NCBI RefSeq assembly: GCF_001564455.1
Contig: NZ_CP011391.1
Span: forward strand, 720,001 to 752,000
Direction of reading: 5' to 3'
Length of the DNA: 32,000 nucleotides
From: Faecalibaculum rodentium
GTDB taxonomy: Bacteria; Bacillota_I; Bacilli_A; Erysipelotrichales; Erysipelotrichaceae
Position 1 is the stretch's first letter; every line of letters begins with the position of its first letter. Under the pieces are notes generated by a model that did not search any database, had not been told where the DNA came from, and saw only the letters and a program-made list of their open reading frames with translations. Below are positions 1,167-15,278 of the stretch, in pieces. The position numbers and the translations under genes are program-made.

Positions 1167-1240
1167 GCAGATGTAGTTCAATGGTAGAACACGACCTTGC
1201 CATGGTCGATACGGGGGTTCGATTCCCCTCATCTGCTCCA
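1167..1240 (+). tRNA. tRNA-Gly (anticodon GCC), CCA encoded
   Basis: Acceptor gcagatg/catctgc, anticodon stem cgacc/ggtcg with loop ttGCCat, T-loop gggttcgattccc, terminal tcca. Confidence 0.9.
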
Positions 1241-1242
1241 TC
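1235..1242 (+). repeat. Left copy of 8-bp direct repeat GCTCCATC (tRNA-Gly 3' end, putative attL core)
   Basis: The identical octamer recurs at 15226-15233, at the far end of the AT-richer accessory block. Confidence 0.5.
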
Positions 1243-1275
1243 AGAATTGTCCGTTTTTCGATAGAAAAACGATTG

Positions 1276-1302
1276 CCGTCCCTATTATAGGGGCGGTTTT
1301 TT
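1276..1302 (+). terminator. Rho-independent terminator
   Basis: ccgtccc-tattata-ggggcgg stem-loop followed by tttttt. Confidence 0.6.
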
Positions 1303-1322
1303 GTTTAGCAAACTCCATTCAT

Positions 1323-1353
1323 AGCTGTGTGCATACTTGCACACAGCTTTTTG
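1323..1353 (+). terminator. Perfect 11-bp palindromic hairpin plus T-run at the island left end (insulating terminator or operator)
   Basis: agctgtgtgca-tact-tgcacacagct followed by ttttt, about 60 nt upstream of the first island gene. Confidence 0.5.
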
Positions 1354-1410
1354 TCGTTTAGGCAGCTGTGGTTGCCCTTCCCTTTTAACTCGGATCACGG
1401 AGGAACGGAT

Positions 1411-2094
1411 ATGAACGGACTCATCAGAAATATGTGGACTAAGTTTTGCAAAGATTACTCATTAGATAACGTTTTAAGGATGATAGAAACATGGAGTGAA
1501 ATGTCGCTGCATAATGCAGACCTGATCAGCTATGCTCCATCGACCAGTCCCAGGTTTGACACTGTACAGACAAATCCGACACTAGGGAAGGATAGGCAAC
1601 TAGATCTGCTTTGCAAATTTTGGAAAGACCTTGAAATCTATCGTCTTGTTAAGTGCGCGCTGGAGAAAATGGCAAACTCTGATCAGGAAAAATTCGTAGA
1701 AGCTTTTCGTTACGGACTTGTCGGTACGCAAACTCTGGAGCTGATCCAGCAGGAACTGATAGTTCTGCTTTCCGCAAACCTAGCCAATTATCCGTATGCC
1801 CAGACAATACTCAATGATTACAGCGATAGGCGAGATGATGTTGTGCAGCGGCTGAATTGCAGCTGGAAAGCGGTTCGGAAAGTTATTCCAGAGATGGTGT
1901 CAAAGCATAAATCCTTTTTTGAGGATCATTTTACATCAGAAGAGATCAGCACTCTGATATCTACTAACGACTGGCAGCGAAAGAGGAATGTTTCATTGCT
2001 GATCCTGTATCTGGAAGGAGAAATATCCAGATCAGAGCTTACGAAAGTCCTGAAAAACGTCCGCGGCGGCAAGAAGCTGCTCAGCCGGATATGA
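1411..2094 (+). CDS. Hypothetical island protein (227 aa); the C-terminal segment weakly resembles a sigma-70 region-4/HTH
   Basis: ATG at 1411 lies downstream of ggagg (1399-1403). No family recognised. C-terminal LLILYLEGEISRSELTKVLKNV is HTH-like by eye only. Confidence 0.6.
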   Translation: MNGLIRNMWTKFCKDYSLDNVLRMIETWSEMSLHNADLISYAPSTSPRFDTVQTNPTLGKDRQLDLLCKFWKDLEIYRLVKCALEKMANSDQEKFVEAFRYGLVGTQTLELIQQELIVLLSANLANYPYAQTILNDYSDRRDDVVQRLNCSWKAVRKVIPEMVSKHKSFFEDHFTSEEISTLISTNDWQRKRNVSLLILYLEGEISRSELTKVLKNVRGGKKLLSRI

Positions 2095-2105
2095 GGTAGC
2101 CGATT

Positions 2106-3590
2106 ATGAATGCAAAAGATGTAATCAGCTATATCCATGCAGATATGGATAAAAAATACCGCCTCCAGGATACAACGGAATGCCATGCGGCGATCCTGAA
2201 AGACTGGATGAGGAATGATGCCTTTCTTCCGGATCAGGATGTAGATGTCCTGCGTCTCAAATATGATGACGCCTATATGGGAGATTACGAACACGGATTT
2301 CATGACCTCTGTTTTAGACAGGATATGTTCATCCGATATATCGAGCAGGCAGCCAATGGGGAAGAGGATGTCTACTTTTCCATCAACTCTTTTTGGAACA
2401 CGAAGAGAACAGAAGCTAACATCCGTCATCTGAATGCCTTTGTCATTGACTACGATTATTACAAAATTGCTGAATATGCAGATCTGTCAGCTGCAGAGAT
2501 GTATCAGCAACACATTAGGCCGTCTTTGGTCATAGATCCAACCTTCGTGATCGACTCTGGGCGCGGTCTGTATTGTATATTCTGCATCGATCATGCGCCC
2601 TATGCATGTACTGGTCTTTATAAAGCAATCTACAGCAAGCTCGTAGAGTCACAGGAGCGATTTGGAGCGGATCCTAAGGCCATGCTGACTACACAGGTCA
2701 TAAGAGTACCAGGCAGCATCAACAGCCGCTCAGGGCGGACCGTGGCCGTTCTGGAAGCCAAAGACCAGAGATATACACTCTCTGAGCTGGCACACCAGTT
2801 CTTACCTTATACACGGCAGCAGGTGCGGGACTATAAGCGGGAAAAGGCGAAGGCTGCATTTGGGCAGGCTAAAAAGGCTGCAGCAGGCAAAAGAAAAGCT
2901 AACAGGTACCAGTCGGAGCTGGCAGAGCTGGAATCGGATCTCATTGCCCTGATTTCCATGCGCAATGATGTCGGAATCACGGTTGGATACCGTGAGGTGC
3001 TGCTGTACCTCTACTGGGAGCGTGCAGCAAAAACGAAAATGGAAGAGGAGTCTATCACCAAAAAAATCCTATGGCTGAATAGTCTTTTCACCATGCCTTT
3101 GACAGAGAAAGAGGCACTGAGCAGATGCAGACCGGCACAGAATTACCGATTCTTAACCGCCCGTGAAAAGATGGTGAGAAAACTTGGGGTCACGGATGAG
3201 GAACAGGGAAAACTGAAATTTCTTGTAAACAGGACGCTCAGAGATTCTTTACGACAGGCTAAGTCCAGAAAAAAGGCCCGTATCAAGCACAAGGGCCGTA
3301 CAGCTGCCCAGGAAGCCAGATATAACCGGCGCTGTGCTCTACTTAAGGGGCTTGACCAGGGATTGGATCTGCAGGCTCTCTCACAGTCTCTGGGAGTGAC
3401 CAAAAAGACGTTACGCAATGACTGCAAGTACATCCTTAGCCACCATGCGGAGTTTGCGGCAGTCATCAAGGCAATCAAGCAAACATTGAGGTATACAATC
3501 AAGACACTGCGTACAGAAGAAACACATAGTGACTATACAGATAAAGAATATCCGAAATGTCAACAATTTGATTACTTTATCAGGCGGTAG
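2106..3590 (+). CDS. Primase-polymerase (AEP)-like replication protein with a basic/HTH-like C-terminal region
   Basis: Motif order fits AEP prim-pol proteins: YFSINSF...NAFVIDYDY (DxD), IDSGRGLYCIF (sGxG), IRVPGSINSRSG (RxPGxxN). Confidence 0.6.
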   Translation: MNAKDVISYIHADMDKKYRLQDTTECHAAILKDWMRNDAFLPDQDVDVLRLKYDDAYMGDYEHGFHDLCFRQDMFIRYIEQAANGEEDVYFSINSFWNTKRTEANIRHLNAFVIDYDYYKIAEYADLSAAEMYQQHIRPSLVIDPTFVIDSGRGLYCIFCIDHAPYACTGLYKAIYSKLVESQERFGADPKAMLTTQVIRVPGSINSRSGRTVAVLEAKDQRYTLSELAHQFLPYTRQQVRDYKREKAKAAFGQAKKAAAGKRKANRYQSELAELESDLIALISMRNDVGITVGYREVLLYLYWERAAKTKMEEESITKKILWLNSLFTMPLTEKEALSRCRPAQNYRFLTAREKMVRKLGVTDEEQGKLKFLVNRTLRDSLRQAKSRKKARIKHKGRTAAQEARYNRRCALLKGLDQGLDLQALSQSLGVTKKTLRNDCKYILSHHAEFAAVIKAIKQTLRYTIKTLRTEETHSDYTDKEYPKCQQFDYFIRR

Positions 3591-3707
3591 GTGGTCGGGA
3601 AAAAATATGTCACAGCAATGGTATCTGTGTCTCGAGCGTGGGCCGCCCTGGCGGCAATCAACTACTACCTGTTTAATGCGCGAACGCTTTCGAAGAGGGA
3701 GGAACTT

Positions 3708-4028
3708 ATGAATAAAAAAGAGAATAAAAAAGAACTTCTTGATGAAGTCCGAAGGATCGCAAATTCTTTGGAACCGGCAGCTCTGTGGCTGCTGGACCAC
3801 CCATGCGGTTTTGGTAAAACGAAATGGTCAGATAACAGCTGCACATCAGCTGAAGATATGGCCGCCTGGATGGTATCTGTACCTGATGATCTGAGAGAAG
3901 CGGTTGCTTTTCTGGAACCTGCTGCAAAAAGTCTCCTGGATCCACTGATGATGACCAATGCTCTGATGATTGTGATGGAATCTGGAATCACTGATATCAA
4001 CAGGAAATTGTCTAAATCTGAGAGATAG
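3708..4028 (+). CDS. Hypothetical protein (106 aa)
   Basis: ATG at 3708 lies after gagggagg. The upstream part of the 3591 ORF overlaps the previous gene end and lacks an RBS. Confidence 0.55.
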   Translation: MNKKENKKELLDEVRRIANSLEPAALWLLDHPCGFGKTKWSDNSCTSAEDMAAWMVSVPDDLREAVAFLEPAAKSLLDPLMMTNALMIVMESGITDINRKLSKSER

Positions 4029-4080
4029 AACTATGTGGGAATAATCTGCAATAAAAATTTTGGCCAGAAGGGTTCATGAA

Positions 4081-4212
4081 TTTTTATTGCTTGTATGGCT
4101 TTTATCAACGCTTTTATTGTTACCACACCCCGTTTGTCTGCAAGGGTACGCTGTCGCCTGCCTGCGGCAGCCCTTGCTGACTGCACTCTCGGCGTGGAAC
4201 GAAGAAATCAGA
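4081..4212 (+). repeat. Structured intergenic module, copy A (divergent)
   Basis: Shares tttattgct, cttttattg, ccacac, tgcaagggtacgctgNcgcctgcc-NNN-ggcagcccttgc, gtgg and cgaagaaatcaga with copies B and C. Hairpin is 4123-4197. It ends about 28 nt before the ATG of 4241. Confidence 0.8.
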
Positions 4213-4240
4213 GAAACACATTCCTGCAGGAGGTAAAAAC

Positions 4241-4609
4241 ATGAAGCTATTTGAAGTTGGTAAGGAATATTTCATCGGTAATGCAGCGTACACGGTGGTT
4301 AAGCGGACAGCTAAAACCGTAACACTAAAACACTATGGCGAAACCAAACGGTACAGCGTAAAGGCTTGGCCTTGCGGTGAAGTGGTTCTCACTGACGGAA
4401 CTACGCTGTATGCCAGCCATGATGAAGCATGGCAGAAGAGAATCGCAGAAAGAGAAATGCAGGAAGAAGCCGCAGCAGCAGCCTACAGAAGCGCAGGCGA
4501 AGCGGCAGACGCTAGACAGTTCCAGCGGCTATTGGACTGTGGAATAGCCCCAAATGCTGCGATTGCAGTCATGAATGAGATGAGAGAAAGTATTTCTATC
4601 TGTGGGTAA
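4241..4609 (+). CDS. Hypothetical protein (122 aa) with an Ala/Glu-rich C-terminal half
   Basis: Strong RBS gcaggaggt upstream of the ATG. It lies 24 nt upstream of the Rpn-like gene. Confidence 0.65.
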   Translation: MKLFEVGKEYFIGNAAYTVVKRTAKTVTLKHYGETKRYSVKAWPCGEVVLTDGTTLYASHDEAWQKRIAEREMQEEAAAAAYRSAGEAADARQFQRLLDCGIAPNAAIAVMNEMRESISICG

Positions 4610-4633
4610 CAATCAGCAAAAGGAGGTGAGCAG

Positions 4634-5401
4634 ATGTTAGAAATATCTGATGAAAAACTGGAAATCATTCTGTCGATGACTGCGTTTGACAATGCGTTCA
4701 TCAGAACGTTTTTTGATAGAAATACCGTGGAGTTTCTTCTTAGGCTGATTTTGAAAAAGCCGGAGCTTTCTGTAGAAACTGTTACGTTTGAGCATGTACT
4801 GGATGACCCGGTTTCAAAAGGTGTGCGGCTGGATATTCGTGCTGTGGATGATGCGGGGAATTGGATGGATATAGAGTTTCAAATCAATCCCCGGGAAGTG
4901 AACGGCAGGCGCTTACGGTATTATCACAGCCGGATGGATGTTCAAATGCTGGAGAGAGGCAAGCAATATACAGAATTGGCAGACGCCTGTGTGATTTTCA
5001 TTTGCCGAGGTGACCCAATCGGAAAAGGCAAGCCGATGTACTGTTTCCAGATGAAAGACCAGGACAATGAGGTTCTGGAAGATGGACAGCTAACGCTGAT
5101 TCTCAATGCAGATTTTCCCGGAGACTGGGAATATAAAAATCTTATGGAGGATTTGAAGAGTGCAGATTCAAAAGATATGCACTATGATGTTCTTAAAGAA
5201 CGGATGCAAACCGTCAAAGAAAAGGAAGGTGAAATCATGGAAGCCGGGCACGTTTTAGAAGATTATCTGAAGAAACAGGAAGACAAAATGAAATCGGAGA
5301 TTGTCGCAAATATGCTTAAAGATAAAATGCCGGAAGAGACTATCGTACGTCTGGCGGTTGTCTCCCCGGAATTTGTAAAGCAAGTACAAGCGACTATGTG
5401 A
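4634..5401 (+). CDS. Rpn/YhgA-like PD-(D/E)XK nuclease (putative transposase family PDDEXK_2)
   Basis: Core KGVRLDIRAVDDAGNWMDIEFQ...RRLRYYHSRM...YTELADACVIFI fits the D...(D/E)xQ/K nuclease core of Rpn-family proteins. RBS aaaggaggtga. C-terminal helical tail EIVANMLKDKMPEETIVRLAVVSPEFV. Confidence 0.75.
   Translation: MLEISDEKLEIILSMTAFDNAFIRTFFDRNTVEFLLRLILKKPELSVETVTFEHVLDDPVSKGVRLDIRAVDDAGNWMDIEFQINPREVNGRRLRYYHSRMDVQMLERGKQYTELADACVIFICRGDPIGKGKPMYCFQMKDQDNEVLEDGQLTLILNADFPGDWEYKNLMEDLKSADSKDMHYDVLKERMQTVKEKEGEIMEAGHVLEDYLKKQEDKMKSEIVANMLKDKMPEETIVRLAVVSPEFVKQVQATM
5237..5401 (+). CDS. Candidate internal in-frame translation product (54 aa C-terminal peptide) of the Rpn-like gene
   Basis: In-frame ATG at 5237 is preceded by aaaggaaggtga, which is Shine-Dalgarno-like. 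Confidence 0.3.
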   Translation: MEAGHVLEDYLKKQEDKMKSEIVANMLKDKMPEETIVRLAVVSPEFVKQVQATM

Positions 5402-5408
5402 TTATGAA

Positions 5409-5431
5409 AGTGGCAAACCTGCCACTTTTTT
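5409..5431 (+). terminator. Rho-independent terminator (GTGGCA...TGCCAC family)
   Basis: agtggca-aacc-tgccact followed by ttttt. Confidence 0.7.
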
Positions 5432-5433
5432 AA

Positions 5434-5601
5434 TTGGCTGGAAATGAAGATTTGAGGATTGTCCTGGAGCTTTTATTGCTCTTATTTCTCTTATTCAGGC
5501 CCTTATTGATCCCACACACCGCTTGTATGCAAGGGTACGCTGACGCCTGCCCATGGCAGCCCTTGCATCCTATGCTTGCTGTGTGGGGCGAAGAAATCAG
5601 A
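5434..5601 (+). repeat. Structured intergenic module, copy B
   Basis: Aligns without gaps to 5938-6105 (offset 504) with 4 substitutions. Hairpin 5511-5588: outer stem cccacaca/tgtgtggg, middle stem gcaaggg/cccttgc, apical stem ctgcc/ggcag. Confidence 0.9.
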
Positions 5602-5617
5602 AGGAGAGGTAAATACT

Positions 5618-5896
5618 ATGACCCAAAAAAAAGAATGGCTTCCGCTGGGTACGGTAGTCACCATGAAAGAAGGAGTTAAACGGCTGATGATTGTTGGGCG
5701 TATTCAGCGAGGAAGTGATGACCTTCTTTATGACTATGCTGGTGTACTCTGGCCGGAAGGGATGATTCGCAGCGACCGCCTGTATCTCTTTAACTATGAG
5801 GACATTGATATCCTCTGGAGCATTGGATATCAGGAGAAGGAGGAATTCAATTTCCGTCATGTTCTCAACGAGCAGCACGATATTCTTCATGAATAG
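5618..5896 (+). CDS. DUF4176-like small protein (92 aa)
   Basis: LPLGTVVTMKEG...LMIVGR...YDYAGVLWPEG...LFNYEDIDILWSIGYQ resembles the DUF4176 pattern common in Bacillota. RBS aggagagg. Confidence 0.65.
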   Translation: MTQKKEWLPLGTVVTMKEGVKRLMIVGRIQRGSDDLLYDYAGVLWPEGMIRSDRLYLFNYEDIDILWSIGYQEKEEFNFRHVLNEQHDILHE

Positions 5897-5911
5897 AATC
5901 TGATTTCAAAA

Positions 5912-5935
5912 GTGGTGGCAAACTTGCCACTTTTT
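5912..5935 (+). terminator. Rho-independent terminator (GTGGCA...TGCCAC family)
   Basis: gtggca-aact-tgccac followed by ttttt. Confidence 0.7.
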
Positions 5936-5937
5936 AT

Positions 5938-6105
5938 TTGGCTGGAAATGAAGATTTGAGGGTTGTCCTGGAGCTTTTATTGCTCTTATTTCTCTTATTC
6001 AGGCCCTTATTGATCCCACACACCGCTTGTATGCAAGGGTACGCTGACGCCTGCCTATGGCAGCCCTTGCATCCTGTGCTTGCTGTGTGGGACGAAGAAA
6101 TCAGA
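5938..6105 (+). repeat. Structured intergenic module, copy C
   Basis: Near-identical to copy B. Hairpin is 6015-6091. Confidence 0.9.
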
Positions 6106-6134
6106 GAGAGCGAACAGCTCAGGAGGAAATAACA

Positions 6135-6446
6135 ATGATGAATGTATTCTGTATTGCGGGAAAATTAGCTGGGGAACCTGCCGTTAGTGAAACACCGGGC
6201 GGTCTTAAAATGGCCTTGCTTACAGTTGAAGTAGAACGCCCGTTCGCAAATTCAATGGGCATCTATGAAAAGGATAAAATCCAGATTGAGGTATGGAGAG
6301 GACTGGCAGAAATGCTTGCATCAACCTGCAAACAGGGAGATTGGGTGACCGCTAAAGGCCGCATTGCATCCCGTCCATACGAAAAAGATGGAAAAGTCTG
6401 GAATAACTATAACTTTGTTGCGGAACGCGTTGACGTGCTGAAGTGA
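6135..6446 (+). CDS. ssb: Single-stranded DNA-binding protein, short form (OB fold only, no acidic C-terminal tail)
   Basis: MMNVFCIAGKLAGEPAV...LTVEVERPF...IQIEVWRGLAE...KQGDWVTAKGRI...YNFVAERVDVL matches the SSB OB-fold pattern. RBS aggagg. Confidence 0.8.
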   Translation: MMNVFCIAGKLAGEPAVSETPGGLKMALLTVEVERPFANSMGIYEKDKIQIEVWRGLAEMLASTCKQGDWVTAKGRIASRPYEKDGKVWNNYNFVAERVDVLK

Positions 6447-6461
6447 ACCGGAGGAGATAAC

Positions 6462-6710
6462 ATGAGTAAACTTGAAAGACTGAAAGCTCTTCTGGATGAA
6501 GAGTTTGATATGGAATCTGTAGCGGCTGATGATTTCGGAGAGGCAAGAAATCTTGCCTATGATTTGGCCGAAGAACTGAACGTTCTTGAAACGGATGAGG
6601 ATGGAAATGAGTACATCCTTGGCCGACTGGTTCACTATTCCGGCACTGCTGGGGCTTACTGGAACCAGGAAGCAGGTCGATACAAGCGGTTCTGGACGAT
6701 TGCAGAATAG
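6462..6710 (+). CDS. Small, strongly acidic hypothetical protein (82 aa)
   Basis: RBS ggaggag. By hand count about 19 D/E versus 8 K/R. It starts 15 nt after ssb. Confidence 0.65.
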   Translation: MSKLERLKALLDEEFDMESVAADDFGEARNLAYDLAEELNVLETDEDGNEYILGRLVHYSGTAGAYWNQEAGRYKRFWTIAE

Positions 6711-6715
6711 CAGAG

Positions 6716-6739
6716 AAGCGGTGCAAATCCGCTTTTTTT
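6716..6739 (+). terminator. Rho-independent terminator
   Basis: agcgg-tgcaaat-ccgct followed by tttttt. Confidence 0.65.
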
Positions 6740-6758
6740 AATCCAGAGATATGTGTTT

Positions 6759-6797
6759 CTTTATTGCTTTTATTTCTCTTATTTTTGCCCTTATAGC
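6759..6797 (+). repeat. Structured intergenic module, copy D (5' part only, truncated by IS66)
   Basis: ctttattgcttttatttctcttatttttgcccttat matches the upstream third of copies B and C and stops at the IS66 left inverted repeat. Confidence 0.75.
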
Positions 6798-6870
6798 GTA
6801 AGCGACGTTAATTACCCATCTATGACAAATCCCTCCGTAGCGGGACAATACCGGCACGGAGGGATTTTAC

Positions 6871-7224
6871 ATGACTGGACTTGATGATATTTCCCGATTA
6901 TACCTGGTCACTGAACCTGTGGACTTTCGCAAAGGCATAGATGGACTGGGTACATATGTCCAGTCGATCCTGAACACTGATCCATTCCAGAATGCGATGT
7001 TCGTCTTCACCAACAAACGACACAACAAGCTCAAGCTCCTCCATTATGACGGTACAGGGTTCTGGCTCCTTCACAAGCAGCTGAGCAAAGGAACCTTCAA
7101 ATGGCGGATGAGTTCCCCGGATCCGTTTCTGCAGATCTCCCCACAGCAGCTGGACTGGCTTTTGGAAGGACTGGACATAAACCAGAAGCGGGCTTTCAGG
7201 CATGTGATGCCTCAATATATCTAG
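6871..7224 (+). CDS. tnpB: IS66 family accessory protein TnpB (Orf2)
   Basis: LVTEPVDFRKGIDGLGTYVQ...MFVFTNKRHNKLKLLHYDGTGFWLLHKQLSKGTFKW is the conserved IS66 Orf2 signature. Confidence 0.9.
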   Translation: MTGLDDISRLYLVTEPVDFRKGIDGLGTYVQSILNTDPFQNAMFVFTNKRHNKLKLLHYDGTGFWLLHKQLSKGTFKWRMSSPDPFLQISPQQLDWLLEGLDINQKRAFRHVMPQYI

Positions 7225-7348
7225 ACAGATCTCCTGATCCCTGACGGTTTTCAGTCATATCGAATGAACCATTTCTGGAACTGTGAGCATAATAATTATT
7301 TAAGGCATTTCAGTTTGCCCCTTTTCCTCTTTATCCTATACTTTTGCC

Positions 7349-9022
7349 ATGGACTTCTTATCTTCTTTTGACTTCGAAAACTACACCCGCAAATCCATGA
7401 AAGAAAGCCTCGAATCTCTGGATCATGATGACCTGGTCGATGCCGCTCTCTTCCTGGCCGACAACCTGTTCCTGAAAGACCAGATCAACAGGAAGGCGGC
7501 CATGGACCGCTTCGCTTCCAAAAGCGAGCAGCTTTTCATATCCCTGTTCAACGAGGCGGAAGAGATCGCATCCACGTCTTCTCCCGAAGACCTGGATGAA
7601 TCAGCTGTCCTGGAAACTGTGAGCAAAGAGAGACCGGCGTCCCCCAAAAAGCGCAGATCCATGAAGGAGAAAGCAAAGGCGCTTCCTGAAAAGATCATCG
7701 ATGTGTATCCGGATGCAGGCAAGGACCCGGTGTGCCCTGTATGTGGCACAGCCATGAAGGAGCTGAAACCGACTGTACACCGGACCATCAAATACGTTCC
7801 GCAGCGCCTCTATGTCGAAGTGGAAGTGGATCATAATTATGTCTGCCCCAAAGGTTGTGAAGATGAGGATGGAAAGCCTGTGATGATCCCGGCTGCCCGC
7901 AAAGAAGCACCGCTTCTGGAGAATACGATGTCTTCGCCTTCTCTTGTGTCCCACATCATAGCCCAGAAAACAGTCATGGGACTGCCTCTTTACAGACAGG
8001 AACAAGACTGGCAGCGAAGAGGATTCAACCTCAGCAGGAGTATCATGGCCAGCTGGATGATCCGTTCTTCCCAGATCTATGGAGAAGCTCTGGTGGACAG
8101 GATGATACAGGATTTCAGGGAATGTGATGTGGTCCATATGGATGAGACCGTACTGAAATGCCTGGAAGTGAGTCGGGATCAGGATCGGACGAACTGTTAC
8201 ATGATCGTCGGGGTCAGCGCAGAGCATGAAGCCAGACAGATGGTCATATATCAGTTCAAGAAGAGCAGGGCCCAGAAGTTCGTATGGGAATTCCTGGGAG
8301 AAGGATTCGAAAAGGCCCTGATGTCAGACGGATTCGAAGGCTACGATAATTACACAGCAGCCATCCATCTGAGTTGTATGGCCCATGCGAGGCGGCATCT
8401 GTATGATGCGGTGAAGATCCGTGCAGACTACCAGACATTCAAGAATCTGCCAGACGATACAGAAATGAAACTGAAACATATCAGGGAGAATCCGGCACTG
8501 GGGATCCTGTTGGAGCCACTTGGGAACATCAACAGGCTTTATGAGGTGGAGAGCAGAGCGAAAAAGAAGAAACTGAGTCGGGAAGAAGTATACGAACTGA
8601 GGCAGAAAGAGTCTAAACCGCTTTTTGACCAGGTGATCGCAGGAATGGAGCGGATCGCCCGGAGTTTTGATAGTGGTTCGAAAGCAGTAAAGGGAGCAAA
8701 CTACTTCCTGAAAAGGAAAGACTCGCTGGCCCTTTATCTGGAGGATGGGAACTATCCGATCGACAATAACCTGGCGGAGCGGATGGTGAAGCCGTTCGTG
8801 ATAGGCCGGAAGGGGTTCCTGTTTGCGGACACGGAAGCAGGAGCGGAAGCAACAGCAGTATGGTACAGTCTGAGCCAATCGGCAATCATGAATGGGCTGG
8901 TGCCTGAGAAGTACATCGAATATGTGCTGACAAGGCTGAAGAACGAAGGGATCAGAGAGGAAGTACTCGAAGACCTGCTTCCATACTCCAGGACACTTCC
9001 AGGACATCTGTATAAGAAATAG
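7349..9022 (+). CDS. tnpC: IS66 family transposase (TnpC)
   Basis: 557 aa with an N-terminal coiled-coil/leucine-zipper-like region and CPVCG...C zinc motif. Also VHMDETVLK, CMAHARRHLYDA and NNLAERMVKPFVIGRKGFLF, typical of IS66 DDE transposases. Confidence 0.9.
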   Translation: MDFLSSFDFENYTRKSMKESLESLDHDDLVDAALFLADNLFLKDQINRKAAMDRFASKSEQLFISLFNEAEEIASTSSPEDLDESAVLETVSKERPASPKKRRSMKEKAKALPEKIIDVYPDAGKDPVCPVCGTAMKELKPTVHRTIKYVPQRLYVEVEVDHNYVCPKGCEDEDGKPVMIPAARKEAPLLENTMSSPSLVSHIIAQKTVMGLPLYRQEQDWQRRGFNLSRSIMASWMIRSSQIYGEALVDRMIQDFRECDVVHMDETVLKCLEVSRDQDRTNCYMIVGVSAEHEARQMVIYQFKKSRAQKFVWEFLGEGFEKALMSDGFEGYDNYTAAIHLSCMAHARRHLYDAVKIRADYQTFKNLPDDTEMKLKHIRENPALGILLEPLGNINRLYEVESRAKKKKLSREEVYELRQKESKPLFDQVIAGMERIARSFDSGSKAVKGANYFLKRKDSLALYLEDGNYPIDNNLAERMVKPFVIGRKGFLFADTEAGAEATAVWYSLSQSAIMNGLVPEKYIEYVLTRLKNEGIREEVLEDLLPYSRTLPGHLYKK

Positions 9023-9110
9023 AAAACAGGACTGTCCCCAATACCATGATGGTACAGGGAATCAGTCCTGTTTTAATATGGGCAATTAACGTCGCTTACA
9101 GTATATGAAG

Positions 9111-9136
9111 AAAAGGTGGCAGAACTGCCACCTTTT
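9111..9136 (+). terminator. Orphan terminator hairpin of the GTGGCA...TGCCAC family directly after IS66
   Basis: aaaaggtggca-gaac-tgccacctttt. No gene precedes it in the present arrangement. Confidence 0.5.
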
Positions 9137-9158
9137 CCGGTAGAAAGGAAGATATAAA

Positions 9159-9482
9159 ATGAAAAATGATAGTAAATTAGGCACTTGTCCACTCTGTGGG
9201 GAGGATGTGATCAACAGTATGTACTCCTGGTACTGTGTTGAAAATGGCAGAAGCTGTGACTTCAAACTGCCACACAGTATACCTTATGGTTTTGGGGATA
9301 AACGGAAGCTGATCCAGCTTGAGGAAGACGAAGCGCGGATCTTAATTGGTGGAGGATCCATTGTGCGGGAATTGGTTTCGAAGAAAGGAAATACGTATCG
9401 CGCTCGATTAAAGCTGTCGATTCGAACTGATGCAGCTGGCCGCCATTGGAGCAATCTGAAATGGGATAGTTATGCTGATTAA
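9159..9482 (+). CDS. Stand-alone zinc-ribbon plus topoisomerase-IA C-terminal-repeat-like protein (107 aa)
   Basis: CPLCG...C...C zinc ribbon, then LEEDEARILIGGGSIVRELVSKKGNTYRARLKL, which resembles the Topo IA/III C-terminal repeat seen in conjugative-element topoisomerases. Confidence 0.6.
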   Translation: MKNDSKLGTCPLCGEDVINSMYSWYCVENGRSCDFKLPHSIPYGFGDKRKLIQLEEDEARILIGGGSIVRELVSKKGNTYRARLKLSIRTDAAGRHWSNLKWDSYAD

Positions 9483-9484
9483 GA

Positions 9485-10495
9485 TTATCGACTGATTCCC
9501 CTGTCAGTACTCAGTGGCCTGTATCCTAACTTTCTCATTTCGGCATTATTTGTGCTTTTAATTCTGCTGATAATTCTGTCTTGTTCATGAGGCGTTAGAT
9601 CTTTATATGCTAGTCGAACATAGGCTTTTAATAAGACCTGGTTATACCGGATTTTGATAGATTCAATCATAGCTTTCTTACGTATATCAGACATGAAAGG
9701 TGTGCTCTGAATCGTTGTATATATATTGGCTAGATTGATTCTGGGAAATATTTCCAGGATGGATTTTTCCAAATCGGGATTTGGAGAGGATAGTACTTCC
9801 TGGAATGAAAGACGTTGGCCATTTGTAGAATTGGCAAAGGGAGTAAAGACTTCTTTGCTCTTTCCAGTAAAATGCCTCGTATGGATTTCCTCGCGTAAAT
9901 CGTCATCACTCATCAACGGGAATAGGGATGATCCACAGTCGTATACTGGTGCAATGGTTTGTTGACCATTATCTTGAACAGCCACTCCCCAGTTTTCCAA
10001 ATGACGATCGTAATTAGCTATTAGGTAATCTACTACGAACATGTTCCAAAAATGCTTTACAGCAGCTTGCTCCAAGTCTGGATTTTCCAGTTCATGAATG
10101 ATTTCATATACCCGGTCAATTGTTATTCGTCTGGTCTTGTTGCTTGTGCTCCAAGGATCGCTTGAATGAATAAACTTCATTGGATACAGCTCGATTCCAT
10201 CATTTTTAAAGTCCCGACAAGCTACTGCGATAAATTCACGGTCGTTATATGTACTTTTGCCCAGGTATGTTTTTTGCACAGGTATACCTATAGACTCATA
10301 GATATGACATCCAACATATTCAGAAAATTGATTGTTTATGTAGGAGAGAGAAGAATTCTTCTCTCTGATGGGGTCGGGATATTTGAGCATGTAGACTGTA
10401 CCTTTGATTGTCAGCCTCCGTTTTCTCTCAGACCCACTATAATTGCTCCATTCGTTGGTTCCAGACGAGAAATCAAGGATACCCTCTTGATTCAT
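9485..10495 (-). CDS. HipA-like serine/threonine kinase (toxin-type, short form, 336 aa)
   Basis: YSGSERKRRL (SGxQxK-like loop), VVDYLIANYDRHLENWGV (DxHxxN catalytic loop) and APVYDCGSSL (Mg-binding D) match the HipA_C kinase core. Confidence 0.75.
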   Translation of the reverse strand: MNQEGILDFSSGTNEWSNYSGSERKRRLTIKGTVYMLKYPDPIREKNSSLSYINNQFSEYVGCHIYESIGIPVQKTYLGKSTYNDREFIAVACRDFKNDGIELYPMKFIHSSDPWSTSNKTRRITIDRVYEIIHELENPDLEQAAVKHFWNMFVVDYLIANYDRHLENWGVAVQDNGQQTIAPVYDCGSSLFPLMSDDDLREEIHTRHFTGKSKEVFTPFANSTNGQRLSFQEVLSSPNPDLEKSILEIFPRINLANIYTTIQSTPFMSDIRKKAMIESIKIRYNQVLLKAYVRLAYKDLTPHEQDRIISRIKSTNNAEMRKLGYRPLSTDRGISR

Positions 10496-10725
10496 GCGAG
10501 GAACCCCAGAAAGTACTCCAACATTTCATCTCTTTTTTTGGTTGTTATGATGCCATCACTGGCAATTACTTTGAGTGAAGTTCTTAAAGCCATCATGTCG
10601 TTTTGCAAATCGAATTTGTCAGAGATTGATCTGCTTTTCTGCCAGCGATCAGCGTCCTGATAGACCTTCTCCATGAACTCGCCTGCATACCAGTCATAGT
10701 CTGCGGGATTATATTTTCTTTCCAT
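10492..10725 (-). CDS. Hypothetical 77-aa protein translationally coupled to the HipA-like kinase (candidate antitoxin/partner)
   Basis: ATGA overlap with the kinase start (10492-10495). RBS aaggaga. No HTH recognisable. Confidence 0.6.
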   Translation of the reverse strand: MERKYNPADYDWYAGEFMEKVYQDADRWQKSRSISDKFDLQNDMMALRTSLKVIASDGIITTKKRDEMLEYFLGFLA

Positions 10726-10830
10726 ATTTTGTCTCCTTGAATTGTAGTCACTTCATTCCAGGTTCATGGCTCAGGATTTATCAAATTCTAGCCATACCGA
10801 AAGTACCTAAATCACAGCTGAGATTCAAGG

Positions 10831-10854
10831 TGCATATCTTCTTTAGATATTGCA
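10831..10854. promoter_or_regulatory. Imperfect inverted repeat in the hipA-like operon upstream region (candidate operator)
   Basis: tgcatatct-tcttt-agatattgca. Confidence 0.3.
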
Positions 10855-10907
10855 TCCTATGTTCCTCCTGACACTATGACTGTATCATATTTCACTATTT
10901 CTTAGGC

Positions 10908-11021
10908 TGTCCTTTTAGGGTGGTGTTTTTATTTCCGGACAAAACGAACGCCAATTAGCCGTGTTTTCAGCTGTAGTAGCTACCGAATCGCTGTCCTTTT
11001 AGGGTACACTCTAAACGGACT
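10908..11021. promoter_or_regulatory. res-like recombinase binding sites upstream of the small serine recombinase
   Basis: TGTCC...GGACA spans 34 bp (10908-10941) and TGTCC...GGACt spans 30 bp (10992-11021). Both start with the 15-nt direct repeat gctgtccttttagggt. The half-site resembles the TGTCYNNTA resolvase consensus. Confidence 0.45.
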
Positions 11022-11073
11022 TAGAAATGGGGAAGATTGGAGAAATACCAATCTCGGAGAATAGGAGATTATT

Positions 11074-11640
11074 ATGGCCAGAATAGGGTATATCCGTGTT
11101 TCTACTGTAGACCAGAATTTGGACCGTCAAATCGCGTTGATGGAATCGCTTGGGATCGAGAAGATTTTTCAGGATGAGTCCTCTGGCAAGAACATGGACC
11201 GTCCTGGGCTCTCTGCAATGCTGGCTTATATTCGGCCAGGGGATGAAATACACGTTGAATCCTTTTCCCGGTTGTCCAGATCCACGGCTGAACTCTTGCA
11301 GACTGTCAATGATCTCATGGATAGAGGAATCCATCTGATTAGTCACAAGGAAAACCTGGACACGACAACAGCCTCTGGACGACTCATGCTGACAGTATTT
11401 GCTGCCATAGCCCAATTTGAACGGGAAATCACCCTGGAACGTCAGAAAGAAGGAATTGCAGCAGCTAAAGCCAGAGGAGTTTATAAAGGACGGGCCAGGA
11501 AGCCTGATACTCCGGAACTGAAAATGGCCATAAAGGGGTGGGAATCTGGCGAAATATCAGCTGCGGATGCGATTCGCATCAGTGGATTAAGTAAATCTGC
11601 ATTTTATGAGCGTACGAAGGGGTATCTTCGTAAAAAATAA
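11074..11640 (+). CDS. Small serine recombinase (resolvase/invertase family) with C-terminal HTH
   Basis: MARIGYIRVSTVDQNLDRQ...GDEIHVESFSRLSRS...GRLMLTVFAAIAQFEREI...RQKEGIAAAKARGVYKGR is the canonical resolvase catalytic domain. RBS aggaga. Confidence 0.9.
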   Translation: MARIGYIRVSTVDQNLDRQIALMESLGIEKIFQDESSGKNMDRPGLSAMLAYIRPGDEIHVESFSRLSRSTAELLQTVNDLMDRGIHLISHKENLDTTTASGRLMLTVFAAIAQFEREITLERQKEGIAAAKARGVYKGRARKPDTPELKMAIKGWESGEISAADAIRISGLSKSAFYERTKGYLRKK

Positions 11641-11686
11641 CTCATTGGTCCTGTATCATCTTTCGTTAAATAGTTATCATCTTATT

Positions 11687-11708
11687 GCGGCAGAAATGCC
11701 GCTTTTTT
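11687..11708 (+). terminator. Rho-independent terminator
   Basis: gcggca-gaaa-tgccgc followed by tttttt. Confidence 0.65.
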
Positions 11709-12698
11709 ATTTGGAGGAGAATAATTTGAAAAGAATTACAGCTATCTATGTACGTGTTTCTTCGCGTGAGCAGGCGTTACAGGGTTACTCTCTGGATGCG
11801 CAAGAATTGAAGTGTCGTCAGTACGCAGATCTAATGGGATATGATACTGAAAATTTGGTTTTATACAAAGATGATGGGTTCTCAGCAAAATCACTGAATA
11901 GACCTCGAATGCAAGACCTGATCAAGGGAATCAAAGATGGAAAAATTGTCCGGGTCATAGTTTACAAACTGGATCGACTGACAAGAAGCGTTACGGATGT
12001 GTATCAGTTGATGCAGATGTTTATGGATTTTGATTGCGAGCTGAAAGCTATTGTTGATAGTCTGGATCTTACCTCAGCCAATGGTCGGATGTTGGTTGGG
12101 ATGTTGTCTATCATCGCCCAGTGGGAGAGAGAAGTGATTTCCGAAAGGACAAAGGATGGATTGGCAGAAAAGGTCAATCAGGGAAAATATCCTTACGGAG
12201 GCAGAGCGCCCTTTGGATGGGATAAGCAGAAAGATGGGAAACTCTGCATCAATGAAGAACAGGCATCCATCAAGAATGCAGCAGGCGACTGGATTCTTGA
12301 AGGGTACAGTTTGAGCAGGGTTTGCGAGTTGGTCCAGGAACACTATGGCTATAAACCGACATTCGACTCGTTGAAGCGTTACATGGAAGATGAAAAGAAT
12401 ATTGGGATTCTGGTTTATAACGGTGAGCGGAAAGTGGATTTTGTCCCTGCATTGATGGATGACAACAAGTTCCAGGAAGTCCAGTATTATCTGTCATTCC
12501 GCGCTCATCACGCACCGTTCAAAAGCAGATATATTTTCCATTCACTTGTTTATTGCACCAAGTGTGGTAGTCGCTTAGATCAGCGGTCCACGGTCAAAAA
12601 GCAAGGCGCAGAAAGAAAGAGGTATTTCTATTATTCTTGTCCCAATTGCTCGAAAAGGATCAGCCAGAAGATTCTGATCGAACAGACTTTTTTTCATT

Positions 12699-13008
12699 CA
12701 TGGACCTCGCATGCGAGGTCCACCCTTGGATCAGTGAAACTTAGATGGGGCCGTTCCGGCCCCTGTTATATTTATCTTGCCGGAGCTGGTGAGAGCACGA
12801 TACACATTTATTCCATGCGGACTTCTCACACAGTCTTCATGAGATTGTTTTTTTATAAGTCGCCGTTGATCTAAATAGTATCCCTGGGTAGAAATTCATC
12901 ACGAATATTCTGAACATTTTGTATAGGCTGTCGGTTTTTTCTCGACAAGTTCAATGGATGGATCAACTTCCACTCCGGCATTTTTTTGTTTGAGAGGAGT
13001 TTTCGACC
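12699..13008 (+). ncRNA. Non-coding left end of the IS110 element; candidate bridge (guide) RNA locus
   Basis: No plausible ORF. Hairpins at 12702-12721 and 12747-12763. Stem 12789-12794/12824-12829 encloses a loop. Segments 12810-12822 and 12837-12856 echo the IS-end and target sequences. Confidence 0.4.
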
Positions 13009-14430
13009 ATGGCTGTTCGTAACAGAAAACCGGTCTGTGTCGGTTTGGATGTCCATAGAAATAATGTCTGGGCCTGTGTGACCTTCAAAGATCCGGCCAA
13101 AGGGAAAGACGGGCTTGTGTTCGTCACCAAAAAATTTGACTCAAATCATACAGATCTTGCCTCAATGTGTGAATGGATCTATACAACTCTTCCGGATCTG
13201 GAAGACAGAGCGATAGATGTTTATATGGAATCGACCGGAAAGTATTCCACCCCTGTTTTTGATGTCTGTGAGGAAATGGGATTGAAACCCCATATCGTCA
13301 ACCCAAAGCATGTCCGGACCATAGCCGGACAAAAAACGGACCAGAAAGACTGTGCCTGGATCGCTGAACTTGGGGCCAACGGTCTGTTGAGAGAGTCATA
13401 TATCCCGGTCCGGGAGCTTCGGGAATCCAGAAGGCTCTCACGGTCCAGAACTAAACTGGTACAGGAAAGAGGGGATACGATCCGAAGGATCCGGAATATT
13501 CTGACAGAAGCGAATATCCGTATGGATCTTGTTTTTTCCGGGATCGAAGGAGAGTCGGCCCGAAGTGTGATCGAATACCTGCTCACGACAGAGGAACCGG
13601 ATTTGGAGGAAGTGAAAAAGCGGATACGGAAAAGCTGCCGGATCATGCGGTTCTCCACCCATAAAGAGCGCAAAGAAAAAGAAGAAGAACTTCGCAAAGC
13701 ATTCGCTGGTGCAAAGTTCTCCTCCGTCCAGAAATTCGAGCTTGAAAATGCGTATGAAAGAGTTGACCGACTCACTGCGCAAATCCAACGCTACGAACAA
13801 ATGATGACGGAAATTCTCGAACCATTCAAGTCCTATCTTGATTTGCTTGATTCCATCCCGGGAATCTCCGGGCTTTCGGCGATGCAGATACTAAGCGAAA
13901 CAGGAACAGACATGGGACAGTTCAAGAACGAGAAGCACTTCATAAGCTGGTGTGGACTGTGCCCTCAAAGCAATCAGAGCAACAACAAACATAAATCGGT
14001 CAAAATTGGAAAAGGCGGATATTATCTAAAGCCTGTGTTGATTCAATGTGCTCTGAACGCAGTGAAGCACCCATATTTCAAGGGGAAGTATGAGGCTATC
14101 GCAGCCCGACGCGGTAAAAAACGCGCATTGATTGCGATTGCGAGAAAGATGATGGTTCTTGCCTATCATATGTTCCAGACAGGTGAATATTTCCAAGAGA
14201 GAAAGAAACAGATCCCGGCGGTATTGGAAAAAGAACAGAGTGAGCGGGAACAGAGTATGGAGACATCAGCAGAGGCAACAGATGCTCCGGCAATTATCAG
14301 GACCGCAAAAGAGATCGTAGAGATGCTGCAGAATACAGATGATGAGATGAAACACAAGATAGAGCAGTTACTGGCCCAGATAGGAATTGCTCAATGTGAA
14401 TATCAAACTGGAGCGATATCAACGATTTAG
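13009..14430 (+). CDS. IS110 family transposase/recombinase (DEDD RuvC-like N-domain plus Tnp C-domain)
   Basis: N-terminal VCVGLDVHRNN...ESTGKYS...DQKDCAWIAE. C-terminal LLDSIPGISGLSAMQILSETGTDMGQFKNEKHFISWCGLCPQSNQS...KGG..LK is the IS116/IS110/IS902 signature. RBS gagaggag. Confidence 0.9.
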   Translation: MAVRNRKPVCVGLDVHRNNVWACVTFKDPAKGKDGLVFVTKKFDSNHTDLASMCEWIYTTLPDLEDRAIDVYMESTGKYSTPVFDVCEEMGLKPHIVNPKHVRTIAGQKTDQKDCAWIAELGANGLLRESYIPVRELRESRRLSRSRTKLVQERGDTIRRIRNILTEANIRMDLVFSGIEGESARSVIEYLLTTEEPDLEEVKKRIRKSCRIMRFSTHKERKEKEEELRKAFAGAKFSSVQKFELENAYERVDRLTAQIQRYEQMMTEILEPFKSYLDLLDSIPGISGLSAMQILSETGTDMGQFKNEKHFISWCGLCPQSNQSNNKHKSVKIGKGGYYLKPVLIQCALNAVKHPYFKGKYEAIAARRGKKRALIAIARKMMVLAYHMFQTGEYFQERKKQIPAVLEKEQSEREQSMETSAEATDAPAIIRTAKEIVEMLQNTDDEMKHKIEQLLAQIGIAQCEYQTGAISTI

Positions 14431-15103
14431 ACAATATGTAAGCATTCAGAAAATTTAAAAAACCTCCCGAGAGGAGGCCTTTTAATCGTGGCTTTCATTT
14501 TATGAGAGTTTCACATTTTGATGTAGCCAAGGCACTTGCCGACTGGCGACAGACTGAGCGGATGAAGAGAGTCGAAATCAGTCTGAACGCTATAAATAAA
14601 AAAATCCAAGATTTGGAGCAGGCGTATATGGATGATGAATTTGATGCAAAGTCATATATGAAAGCCAGACAGCCACTGGATAAGAATGTGGAGGATCTGG
14701 AGAAGCAGATAAGGATCTTTGATGTAAAAGACATAGATGCATTTTATGCTTTGGACTATAAAGACCAGTATTTGATTATGGATCTGGTAGTTTCCAAGGT
14801 CGAAGTTGATTTGGAAAAGAAGAGAGTCGTCACTCTTAAATTCAAAAGCAACGATTAGAGCTGCGTTACATAAGCAGCTTATTTGAATCACTGAGTAAAA
14901 ATGGATAAATTTGATGGGTTTATTTCGTTGTGAACCCGTTAATCGTGTATAATGAAGTCATCACAAAGAAATAAAAAAATCCCTCCATCTTTTGGCCGAG
15001 ATGAGGGAACCGATGATAGCAGAAGATGCTGCTTCATGTCTTTAGTATAACATCAAAACTCGAATTCTCAAGATGTTAATCTGAAAAAGTGATAGAAATT
15101 ATC

Positions 15104-15136
15104 GCTGGTAGCGCTTATTCGGCCTACCAGCTTTTT
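15104..15136 (+). terminator. Rho-independent terminator in the island right arm
   Basis: gctggtag-(12 nt)-ctaccagc followed by ttttt. Confidence 0.6.
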
Positions 15137-15225
15137 GTTTTACAAGTTGATTACATTCCATATATAAAAGTATGTATATCAGTACTGATAGGGAAGGCAA
15201 CTGTTTGAGTTATCTTTGGCTGATG

Positions 15226-15233
15226 GCTCCATC
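15226..15233 (+). repeat. Right copy of 8-bp direct repeat GCTCCATC (putative attR core)
   Basis: Identical to 1235-1242. The following bases tag-TTG partly parallel agaa-TTG after the tRNA. Confidence 0.5.
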
Positions 15234-15245
15234 TAGTTGCGAAAT

Positions 15246-15278
15246 GAGCCCGACTGGGTTCGTTTTTTTTTTTTTTTT
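15246..15278 (+). terminator. Hairpin plus T16 tract; probable original terminator of the tRNA cluster, displaced by the island
   Basis: tgagccc-gact-gggttcg (7 bp including 2 G-U pairs) followed by 16 consecutive T (15263-15278). Confidence 0.5.

Follow-up and report, generated by a model that had tools for sequence, protein, structure and literature searches.

An IS110-family insertion sequence interrupts the large serine recombinase gene of a genomic island in Faecalibaculum rodentium

Background

When an insertion sequence (IS) comes to lie inside the integrase gene of a genomic island, is the mobility of the island lost for good, or can the IS leave again and give it back? The question is raised by a stretch of 32,000 nucleotides of the Faecalibaculum rodentium genome (RefSeq assembly GCF_001564455.1, contig NZ_CP011391.1, positions 720,001 to 752,000; hereafter the window, to which coordinates refer unless stated otherwise), where the gene for a large serine recombinase (LSR) is broken by an IS110-family element. 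The interrupted gene spans 11726-14858 (+) as a whole, and the IS lies in the same orientation as the gene. An original prediction, made from the letters alone, had described this split and proposed that the mobility of the surrounding island is switched by the IS. The analysis presented here favours, with considerable confidence, a plainer reading: that the insertion is a recent and probably permanent knock-out of the island integrase, which has probably left the island immobilised.

Results

The interrupted gene and the size of the insert

The 5' part of the LSR gene (11726-12694, +) begins with TTG and contains codons 1-323, which encode the catalytic Ser12, the recombinase domain and a four-Cys zinc ribbon. 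The open frame from this TTG matched the resolvase catalytic domain in Pfam (PF00239, E = 9e-36) and the catalytic domain of the TP901-1 integrase (E = 2e-22); matches to the Recombinase (PF07508, E = 0.0013) and zinc-ribbon (PF13408, E = 0.0014) domains were weak and below the curated cut-offs, and the LSR reached no equivalog cut-off in NCBIfam. Among 41 homologues, residues R10, S12, R59, R84 and R87 were invariant, S12 being the nucleophilic serine, and the ribbon cysteines C277, C280, C305 and C308 were nearly so. The 3' part (14520-14858, +) contains codons 324-435 and the stop codon, and supplies the remainder of the helix that follows the ribbon as well as the coiled coil and the strands at the C-terminus; it lies within an open frame of 118 codons that ends at 14858.

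A search with the 5' piece recovered an intact protein of 435 aa (P0001), which was 99% identical across all 324 residues and then continued with the sequence of the 118-codon frame. When the genome was searched with P0001, residues 1-324 were placed at 11726-12697 and residues 321-435 at 14511-14855, both at 98% identity and free of stops. Since both pieces match a single protein in this way, the predicted split of one recombinase by an IS110-family element was confirmed, as was the undecayed state of its halves, neither of which contains an internal stop. The intact halves, together with the 99-100% identity of four genomic copies of the IS, support the view that the event was recent. Named matches from the LSR and transposase protein searches belonged to Faecalibaculum, Allobaculum and Faecalicoccus.

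The exact size of the insert was determined by comparison with an uninterrupted allele on the contig that encodes P0001 (L005, 2431 bp). This contig aligned to window positions 10997-12697 and 14516-15247 with 99.6-99.7% identity. Across the junction, the intact protein reads ...ILIEQTFFDVAKALADW... (EQTFF|DVAK), while the empty site is GAACAGACTTTTTTT|GATGTAGCC at the nucleotide level. The insert is therefore 1825 bp long, which is the amount by which the occupied site exceeds the empty one, and corresponds to 12695-14519 or to any register up to four T leftward. Its target was a run of seven T (12688-12694, +) that is preceded by C12687 and, in the intact allele, directly followed by GATGTAGCC. 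Both true junctions have the T run in common, with seven T at left and four T at right, and there was no target duplication beyond these shared T's. Excising 12695-14519 in silico produced a stop-free frame of 1308 nt, the length of the intact allele, from which it differed by four nucleotides and three amino acids.

Immediately upstream of the gene, a hairpin that resembles a terminator was observed together with a T run (11687-11712, the hairpin itself at 11687-11702), ending 14 nt 5' of the TTG codon. Judged from its sequence, this suggests that the LSR may be expressed by read-through only, or at a very low level.

Effect of the break on the recombinase

An AlphaFold model of P0001, built from 41 homologues, had a mean predicted local distance difference test (pLDDT) score of 87. 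It placed the zinc-ribbon strands at residues 275-313, a helix at 314-333, the coiled coil at 336-389 (helices 336-360 and 366-389) and, at the C-terminus, a unit of helix and strands at 395-431. When the model was submitted to Foldseek, full-length serine integrases ranked first, namely 9dxd (1.6e-19), Bxb1 (9iu2), phiC31 and the LI integrase (4kis); E-values for 9dxd, 9iu2 and 4kis ranged from 1e-13 to 1e-19. In the model, the break after F323 cuts the helix at 314-333 and separates the last 112 residues, coiled coil included, from the rest of the protein.

The 5' frame reads on into the IS as far as a stop at 12872-12874, so that its product would combine 323 native with 59 foreign residues (382 aa). 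The 3' piece has an in-frame ATG at 14502, inside the IS, but inspection by eye found no suitably spaced ribosome-binding site. Clean deletion of the coiled coil from the LI integrase leaves an enzyme that relaxes DNA and converts a small fraction of PxB and LxR substrates to product, an activity that is weak and non-directional in vitro (PMC5499577). Loss of function is likely here because the lesion is larger than that deletion, and the interrupted LSR is most likely non-functional.

The island and its borders

The island measures approximately 14 kb (1235-15233). Its left border is marked by the attL core GCTCCATC (1235-1242, +), at the 3' end of a tRNA-Gly(GCC) gene (1167-1240). Its right border is marked by the attR core GCTCCATC (15226-15233, +), beyond which 15234-15278 matches the sequence after an unoccupied paralogous tRNA-Gly gene. 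The LSR lies at the right end and is the sole integrase-type gene, which supports its presumed role as the island's integrase.

The same borders emerged from related elements that have a 67% identical LSR (P0002) and the same neighbours, i.e., a HipA-like kinase, a 107-aa zinc protein and a small resolvase. The DNA after the P0002-type LSR consisted of chromosomal genes in three contigs (L006, L007 and L009), while in another (L008) the LSR gene ran into homologues of window 1410-4090 (81% identical), an arrangement that corresponds to attP. Projected onto the window, homology to the P arm stops at 15233 and homology to the P' arm begins directly after tRNA-Gly(GCC). A second tRNA-Asp/tRNA-Gly(GCC) pair is situated about 750 bp upstream of the window (L012 1338-1545; G000:C1:719274-719481) and was identical over the 160 bp compared. 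This pair is followed by TCTAGTTGCGAAATGAGCCCGGACGGGTTCG-T19, a 94% identical counterpart of window 15226-15278. On sequence grounds, the paralogous tRNA-Gly site would represent an unoccupied attB, and this supports the island borders.

The predicted attB was found once, in L019, a contig that represents the same locus as this genome; it was rejected as an island-free allele, being the paralogous unoccupied site of that locus. An exact 28-mer scan of the genome contigs for an empty attB found nothing, and the 30 species representatives searched included no close relative for an island-free comparison.

Besides the LSR, the island carries genes for an IS66-family transposase, a PD-(D/E)XK protein, SSB, a HipA-like protein and a small serine recombinase. 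The last, of the resolvase/invertase type (11074-11640, +; 188 aa), lies just upstream of the LSR, and the same pair stands beside the intact allele in L005. The IS66-family transposase at 7349-9022 (PF03050, E = 5e-69) means that the island has taken at least two IS hits. Compared with L006 825-3052, the segment at 9112-11640 has the HipA-like gene and the small resolvase inverted, with the 107-aa gene on the other side of hipA; a gene of 166-179 aa that lies between the resolvase and the LSR in the related element (L006) is missing from the window.

Elsewhere in the genome there is an intact second LSR, 40% identical, at C1:540216-541484 (L014), with an open frame of 436 codons and a small serine recombinase nearby (543661-544068, L017). 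This locus at about 540 kb is probably a second, related island.

The insertion sequence and its target preference

Four copies of the IS, including the one inside the LSR gene (12695-14519, +), are present in the 2.54-Mb genome, which is assembled as one contig. The IS consists of a non-coding left end of 314 nt (12695-13008, +), with a terminal hairpin, a terminator-like hairpin at 12747-12763 and a conserved structured core; a gene for an IS110-family (DEDD) transposase, or bridge recombinase, of 473 aa (13009-14430, +); and a right end of 89 nt (14431-14519, +), which folds into a hairpin (14455-14485) and finishes with the conserved terminus GTTTCACATTTT. The transposase contained PF01548 (DEDD_Tnp_IS110, E = 4e-23) and PF02371 (Transposase_20, E = 6e-20) in Pfam, and scored 224.5 bits against the NCBIfam model NF033542 ('IS110 family RNA-guided transposase'), for which the cut-off is 140. 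The element begins with CATTCATGG... and ends with ...GTTTCACATTTT, without terminal inverted repeats. Sequence common to the four genomic copies extends from C12687 through 14518. An unrelated fifth IS110-family transposase gene, 40% identical, occurs at G000:C1:331108-332220 in the same genome.

In all four copies, C-T7 immediately precedes CATTCATGG, and the right side reads ...GTTTCACA and continues with three or four T. For the three copies outside the LSR gene, the 40 nt upstream folded at -12 to -17 kcal/mol right before the T run, in the manner of a terminator. Contigs from other samples that encode the identical transposase provided further sites of the same C-T7 / T3-4 form; one of these (L067) had a right flank that corresponds to an empty C-T7 site in the present genome (GGCGGC-TTTTTTT-GTATCC, at about 363297). 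Four related IS types, with transposases 60-64% identical, shared the termini CATTCATRG and TYTCACATTT and a left flank of (C/G)T6-7. Taking the IS and these four types together, at least nine distinct sites had (C/G)T6-7 at left and T3-4 at right, with one atypical (L053).

The target within the LSR gene, GAC-TTTTTTT-GATG, conforms to this preference, and has a hairpin (GATCAG...CTGATC) 8 nt from the T run. The genome, with a GC content of 54%, contains 194 sites of the form C-T7-non-T, about half of which have an upstream hairpin of -8 kcal/mol or stronger. The hit on the LSR is read as a fortuitous insertion at a look-alike site, and not as a sign that the recombinase gene was targeted. The division of a T7 target into seven T at left and four at right would be consistent with a circle junction, CACA-TTTT-CATTC, and with crossing-over in a constant register counted from the left C; for an active element the predicted junction of the circle is ...GTTTCACATTTTCATTCATGG....

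Several irregular copies were observed. The atypical element in L053 (873 and 2731; transposase 63%) lies in CTCGATT|...|GATTG, without a T run, and adjoins the reverse-transcriptase gene of a group II intron; it may be an off-target ('half-match') insertion. In L067, the same IS joins flanks that are 35 kb apart here (G000 398906-398995 and 363297-363903), which suggests an IS-mediated deletion or rearrangement, or a different synteny. In L062, a related IS is flanked on both sides by the same sequence of about 80 bp (approximately 780-860 and 2748-2830), which could reflect a tandem arrangement or an assembly artefact. A match to the left terminus at window 1316 (CATTCATAG) was attributed to chance; it is a 9-mer with one degenerate position, of which about 0.5 are expected per window.

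A conserved RNA structure in the left end

In elements of the IS110 group, a bridge RNA or seekRNA is encoded upstream of the transposase (PMC11208160; PMC11187229). The left end of the present IS contains a conserved RNA core of 135 nt (12836-12971, +) with 33 base pairs. When five IS types were aligned, 93% of cells were able to pair, and 13 of the 33 pairs had changed on both sides in a compensatory manner. None of 500 shuffled controls reached as high a value, and slid controls paired at 26-42%. Within the core, two unpaired segments are conserved: U7 (12848-12854), which repeats the left half of the target, and ACAUUUU (12914-12920), which repeats the IS right end, CACATTTT. Tentatively, and from sequence correspondence, these segments are candidate guides for the left target and the left donor, respectively. 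The base before U7 is G, against C in the target, and the L064-type IS has C in the guide against G in the target. The U7 candidate does not explain the conserved C, therefore, because G stands before it. Target and donor are both invariant across the IS family, leaving nothing to covary with the guides.

No right-hand guides were found in the left-end RNA, and a search of the left end against Rfam gave no match at the gathering threshold or at E <= 1. A covariance model of the core (R1) returned weak, non-significant matches only, upstream of transposases that were 33-38% identical (L048, E = 0.15; L035, E = 0.61). A variable segment, ACACAUUUAUUCCAUG (approximately 12808-12823), was tried as a donor guide and dropped, since the L055-type IS lacks it.

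A conserved, covarying GC hairpin with a U-rich tract was also observed in the window (12747-12772) and in L051, L055, L062 and L064, approximately 50-80 nt inside the IS left end. From its sequence it looks like a built-in terminator, which may shield the IS from outside transcription.

Discussion

The observations can be drawn together as follows. A circular form of the 1825-bp IS, with the junction ...CACA-TTTT-CATTC..., would have recombined with a T run after C or G, leaving seven T at left and three or four at right, and the left-end RNA may have guided the choice of the run. The usual homes of the IS are sites with a terminator-like hairpin and a T run, and the LSR gene happened to hold a matching site between codons 323 and 324 of 435. 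Insertion there, in the orientation of the gene, has parted the catalytic, recombinase and zinc-ribbon portion from most of the next helix and from all that comes after it, namely the coiled coil and the strands at the C-terminus. Because its only integrase-type enzyme is most likely non-functional, the island would be unable to excise or to re-integrate by itself, and its 'locking in place', as originally predicted, is a reasonable consequence.

The most serious alternative to permanent loss is a reversible switch, in which precise excision of the IS in a subpopulation restores the 435-aa enzyme and makes island mobility phase-variable. Several features speak for it: the insertion is scar-less, so that reverse recombination would restore the gene perfectly; the IS lies inside the gene and in its orientation; and four near-identical copies mean that enzyme and RNA are available in trans. 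Genomic copies of IS621 have also given post-excision junctions, excision being dependent on transcription into the left end (PMC13626964). However, excision is reported to be less efficient than insertion in work on IS110/IS1111 elements (PMC13626964), and IS621 reportedly releases mostly a single-stranded circle while the donor site stays occupied (bioRxiv 10.64898/2026.08.31.748434). For ISEc11, the re-joined target went undetected (PMC11187229). Elements of the IS110/IS1111 type are reported to move mostly by copying out, leaving the donor site occupied (bioRxiv 10.64898/2026.08.31.748434; PMC11187229). Furthermore, the terminator-like hairpins at 11687-11702 and 12747-12763 imply weak read-through into the guide RNA region of the present element, and there is no sign of selection for its position, because the genome offers 194 C-T7 sites, this one among them. 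A switch is consequently considered improbable. Much the same small likelihood attaches to a compound proposal, that the IS in the LSR gene undergoes rare but exact excision, perhaps upon transcription, and, separately, that this IS sub-family is a natural bridge-type recombinase with a guide that reads a homopolymer T run beside terminator hairpins.

A second alternative concerns the protein rather than the DNA, namely that the 382-aa product retains a deregulated recombinase activity on the island ends without its coiled coil. All four ribbon cysteines lie before the break, as do the catalytic and recombinase domains, and the LI integrase still gives some products without its coiled coil (PMC5499577). 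Yet the lesion is no clean deletion of the coiled coil; half of the helix at 314-333 and the unit at 395-431 are lost as well, 59 unrelated residues are added, and the island is still in place. Residual activity of this kind is very unlikely.

Finally, the original prediction placed the borders differently, as an 1801-bp element (12699-14499) bounded by the heptamer tttcatt, which would be a 7-bp duplication or a recombination core; this was ruled out by the empty-site allele. The heptamer does occur at both positions (12692-12698 and 14493-14499), and deleting 12699-14499 in silico does leave a frame open, reading ...ILIEQTFFHFMRVSHFDVAKALADW.... However, that frame encodes 443 aa, with eight residues (HFMRVSHF) that have no counterpart in the intact allele, and the border is 24 bases off. 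The right-hand heptamer (14493-14499, +) is no junction but an internal part of the IS right end, about 20 bp from the border, in a stretch that is unconserved in related IS, which instead conserve the terminus TCACATTTT. Sequence common to all copies continues through 14518, and the T run is all that the true junctions share. Alignment with the intact homologue thus revealed extra residues at the 1801-bp junction, and none for the split itself.

Permanent inactivation of the integrase and immobilisation of the island are therefore preferred, while several considerations weigh against this interpretation. The LI integrase keeps weak activity without its coiled coil (PMC5499577), so loss of function in the LSR may be incomplete. 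IS621 leaves post-excision junctions in E. coli that are detectable by polymerase chain reaction (PMC13626964), and rare restoration of the LSR through excision of the IS could conceivably occur. The island contains the IS66-family element in addition, and its mobility may have been lost earlier through some other cause; action in trans of the second LSR, at about 540 kb, on the island is unlikely. Lastly, another member of the family, IS492, is said to excise precisely at high frequency, going by the title of a 2007 paper by Higgins. The layout is the same as here, since IS492 in epsG of Pseudoalteromonas atlantica is an IS110-family element inside a gene, the frame of which is restored by exact removal. 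There, precise excision reportedly gives phase variation; at the present locus excision is hypothetical.

The component parts belong to known families. The LSR resembles serine integrases (SPbeta, Bxb1, phiC31 and the Listeria A118/LI integrase, as well as CcrAB, XisF and TnpX) in its catalytic-serine domain, recombinase domain, four-Cys ribbon and coiled coil, and also in the position of its gene at one end of an integrated element with short identity between att sites. Unlike these enzymes, it is short (435 aa) and its gene is broken; its integration site, at the 3' terminus of a tRNA gene, is also of a kind more usual for tyrosine integrases. The IS likewise resembles IS621 and other bridge-RNA (seekRNA) elements of the IS110 group: it has the same DEDD and Transposase_20 domains, a long left and a short right non-coding end, strict orientation and site preference without inverted repeats or true target duplication, and a conserved, covarying RNA structure in its left end. 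It differs in that the target of IS621 is a repetitive extragenic palindromic (REP) sequence, whereas the present IS uses a homopolymer T run after C or G, in terminator-like surroundings. Nor does the two-loop guide layout of IS621 map obviously onto its left-end RNA.

Conclusions

The knock-out of a gene by an IS is a routine event, and nothing at this locus is new in kind. Only two points are mildly new: the homing of an IS sub-family to T runs, and its left-end RNA, which has no obvious fit to the IS621 layout. For annotation, the two LSR pieces should be treated as one pseudogene that is interrupted by an IS of 1825 bp, in an island (1235-15233) that is probably immobilised. Precise removal of the IS would leave an empty site reading GACTTTTTTTGATG / GAACAGACTTTTTTTGATGTAGCC, and if exact excision at a low rate were true, an RNA-guided IS would control whether an integrative island unrelated to it can move. 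The locus, the other three copies in the genome and the related elements combine into a clean collection of sites, both occupied and empty, for an IS110 sub-family with homing to C/G followed by T6-7. Such T-run sites, being mostly terminator-like, offer the IS a low-cost landing place.

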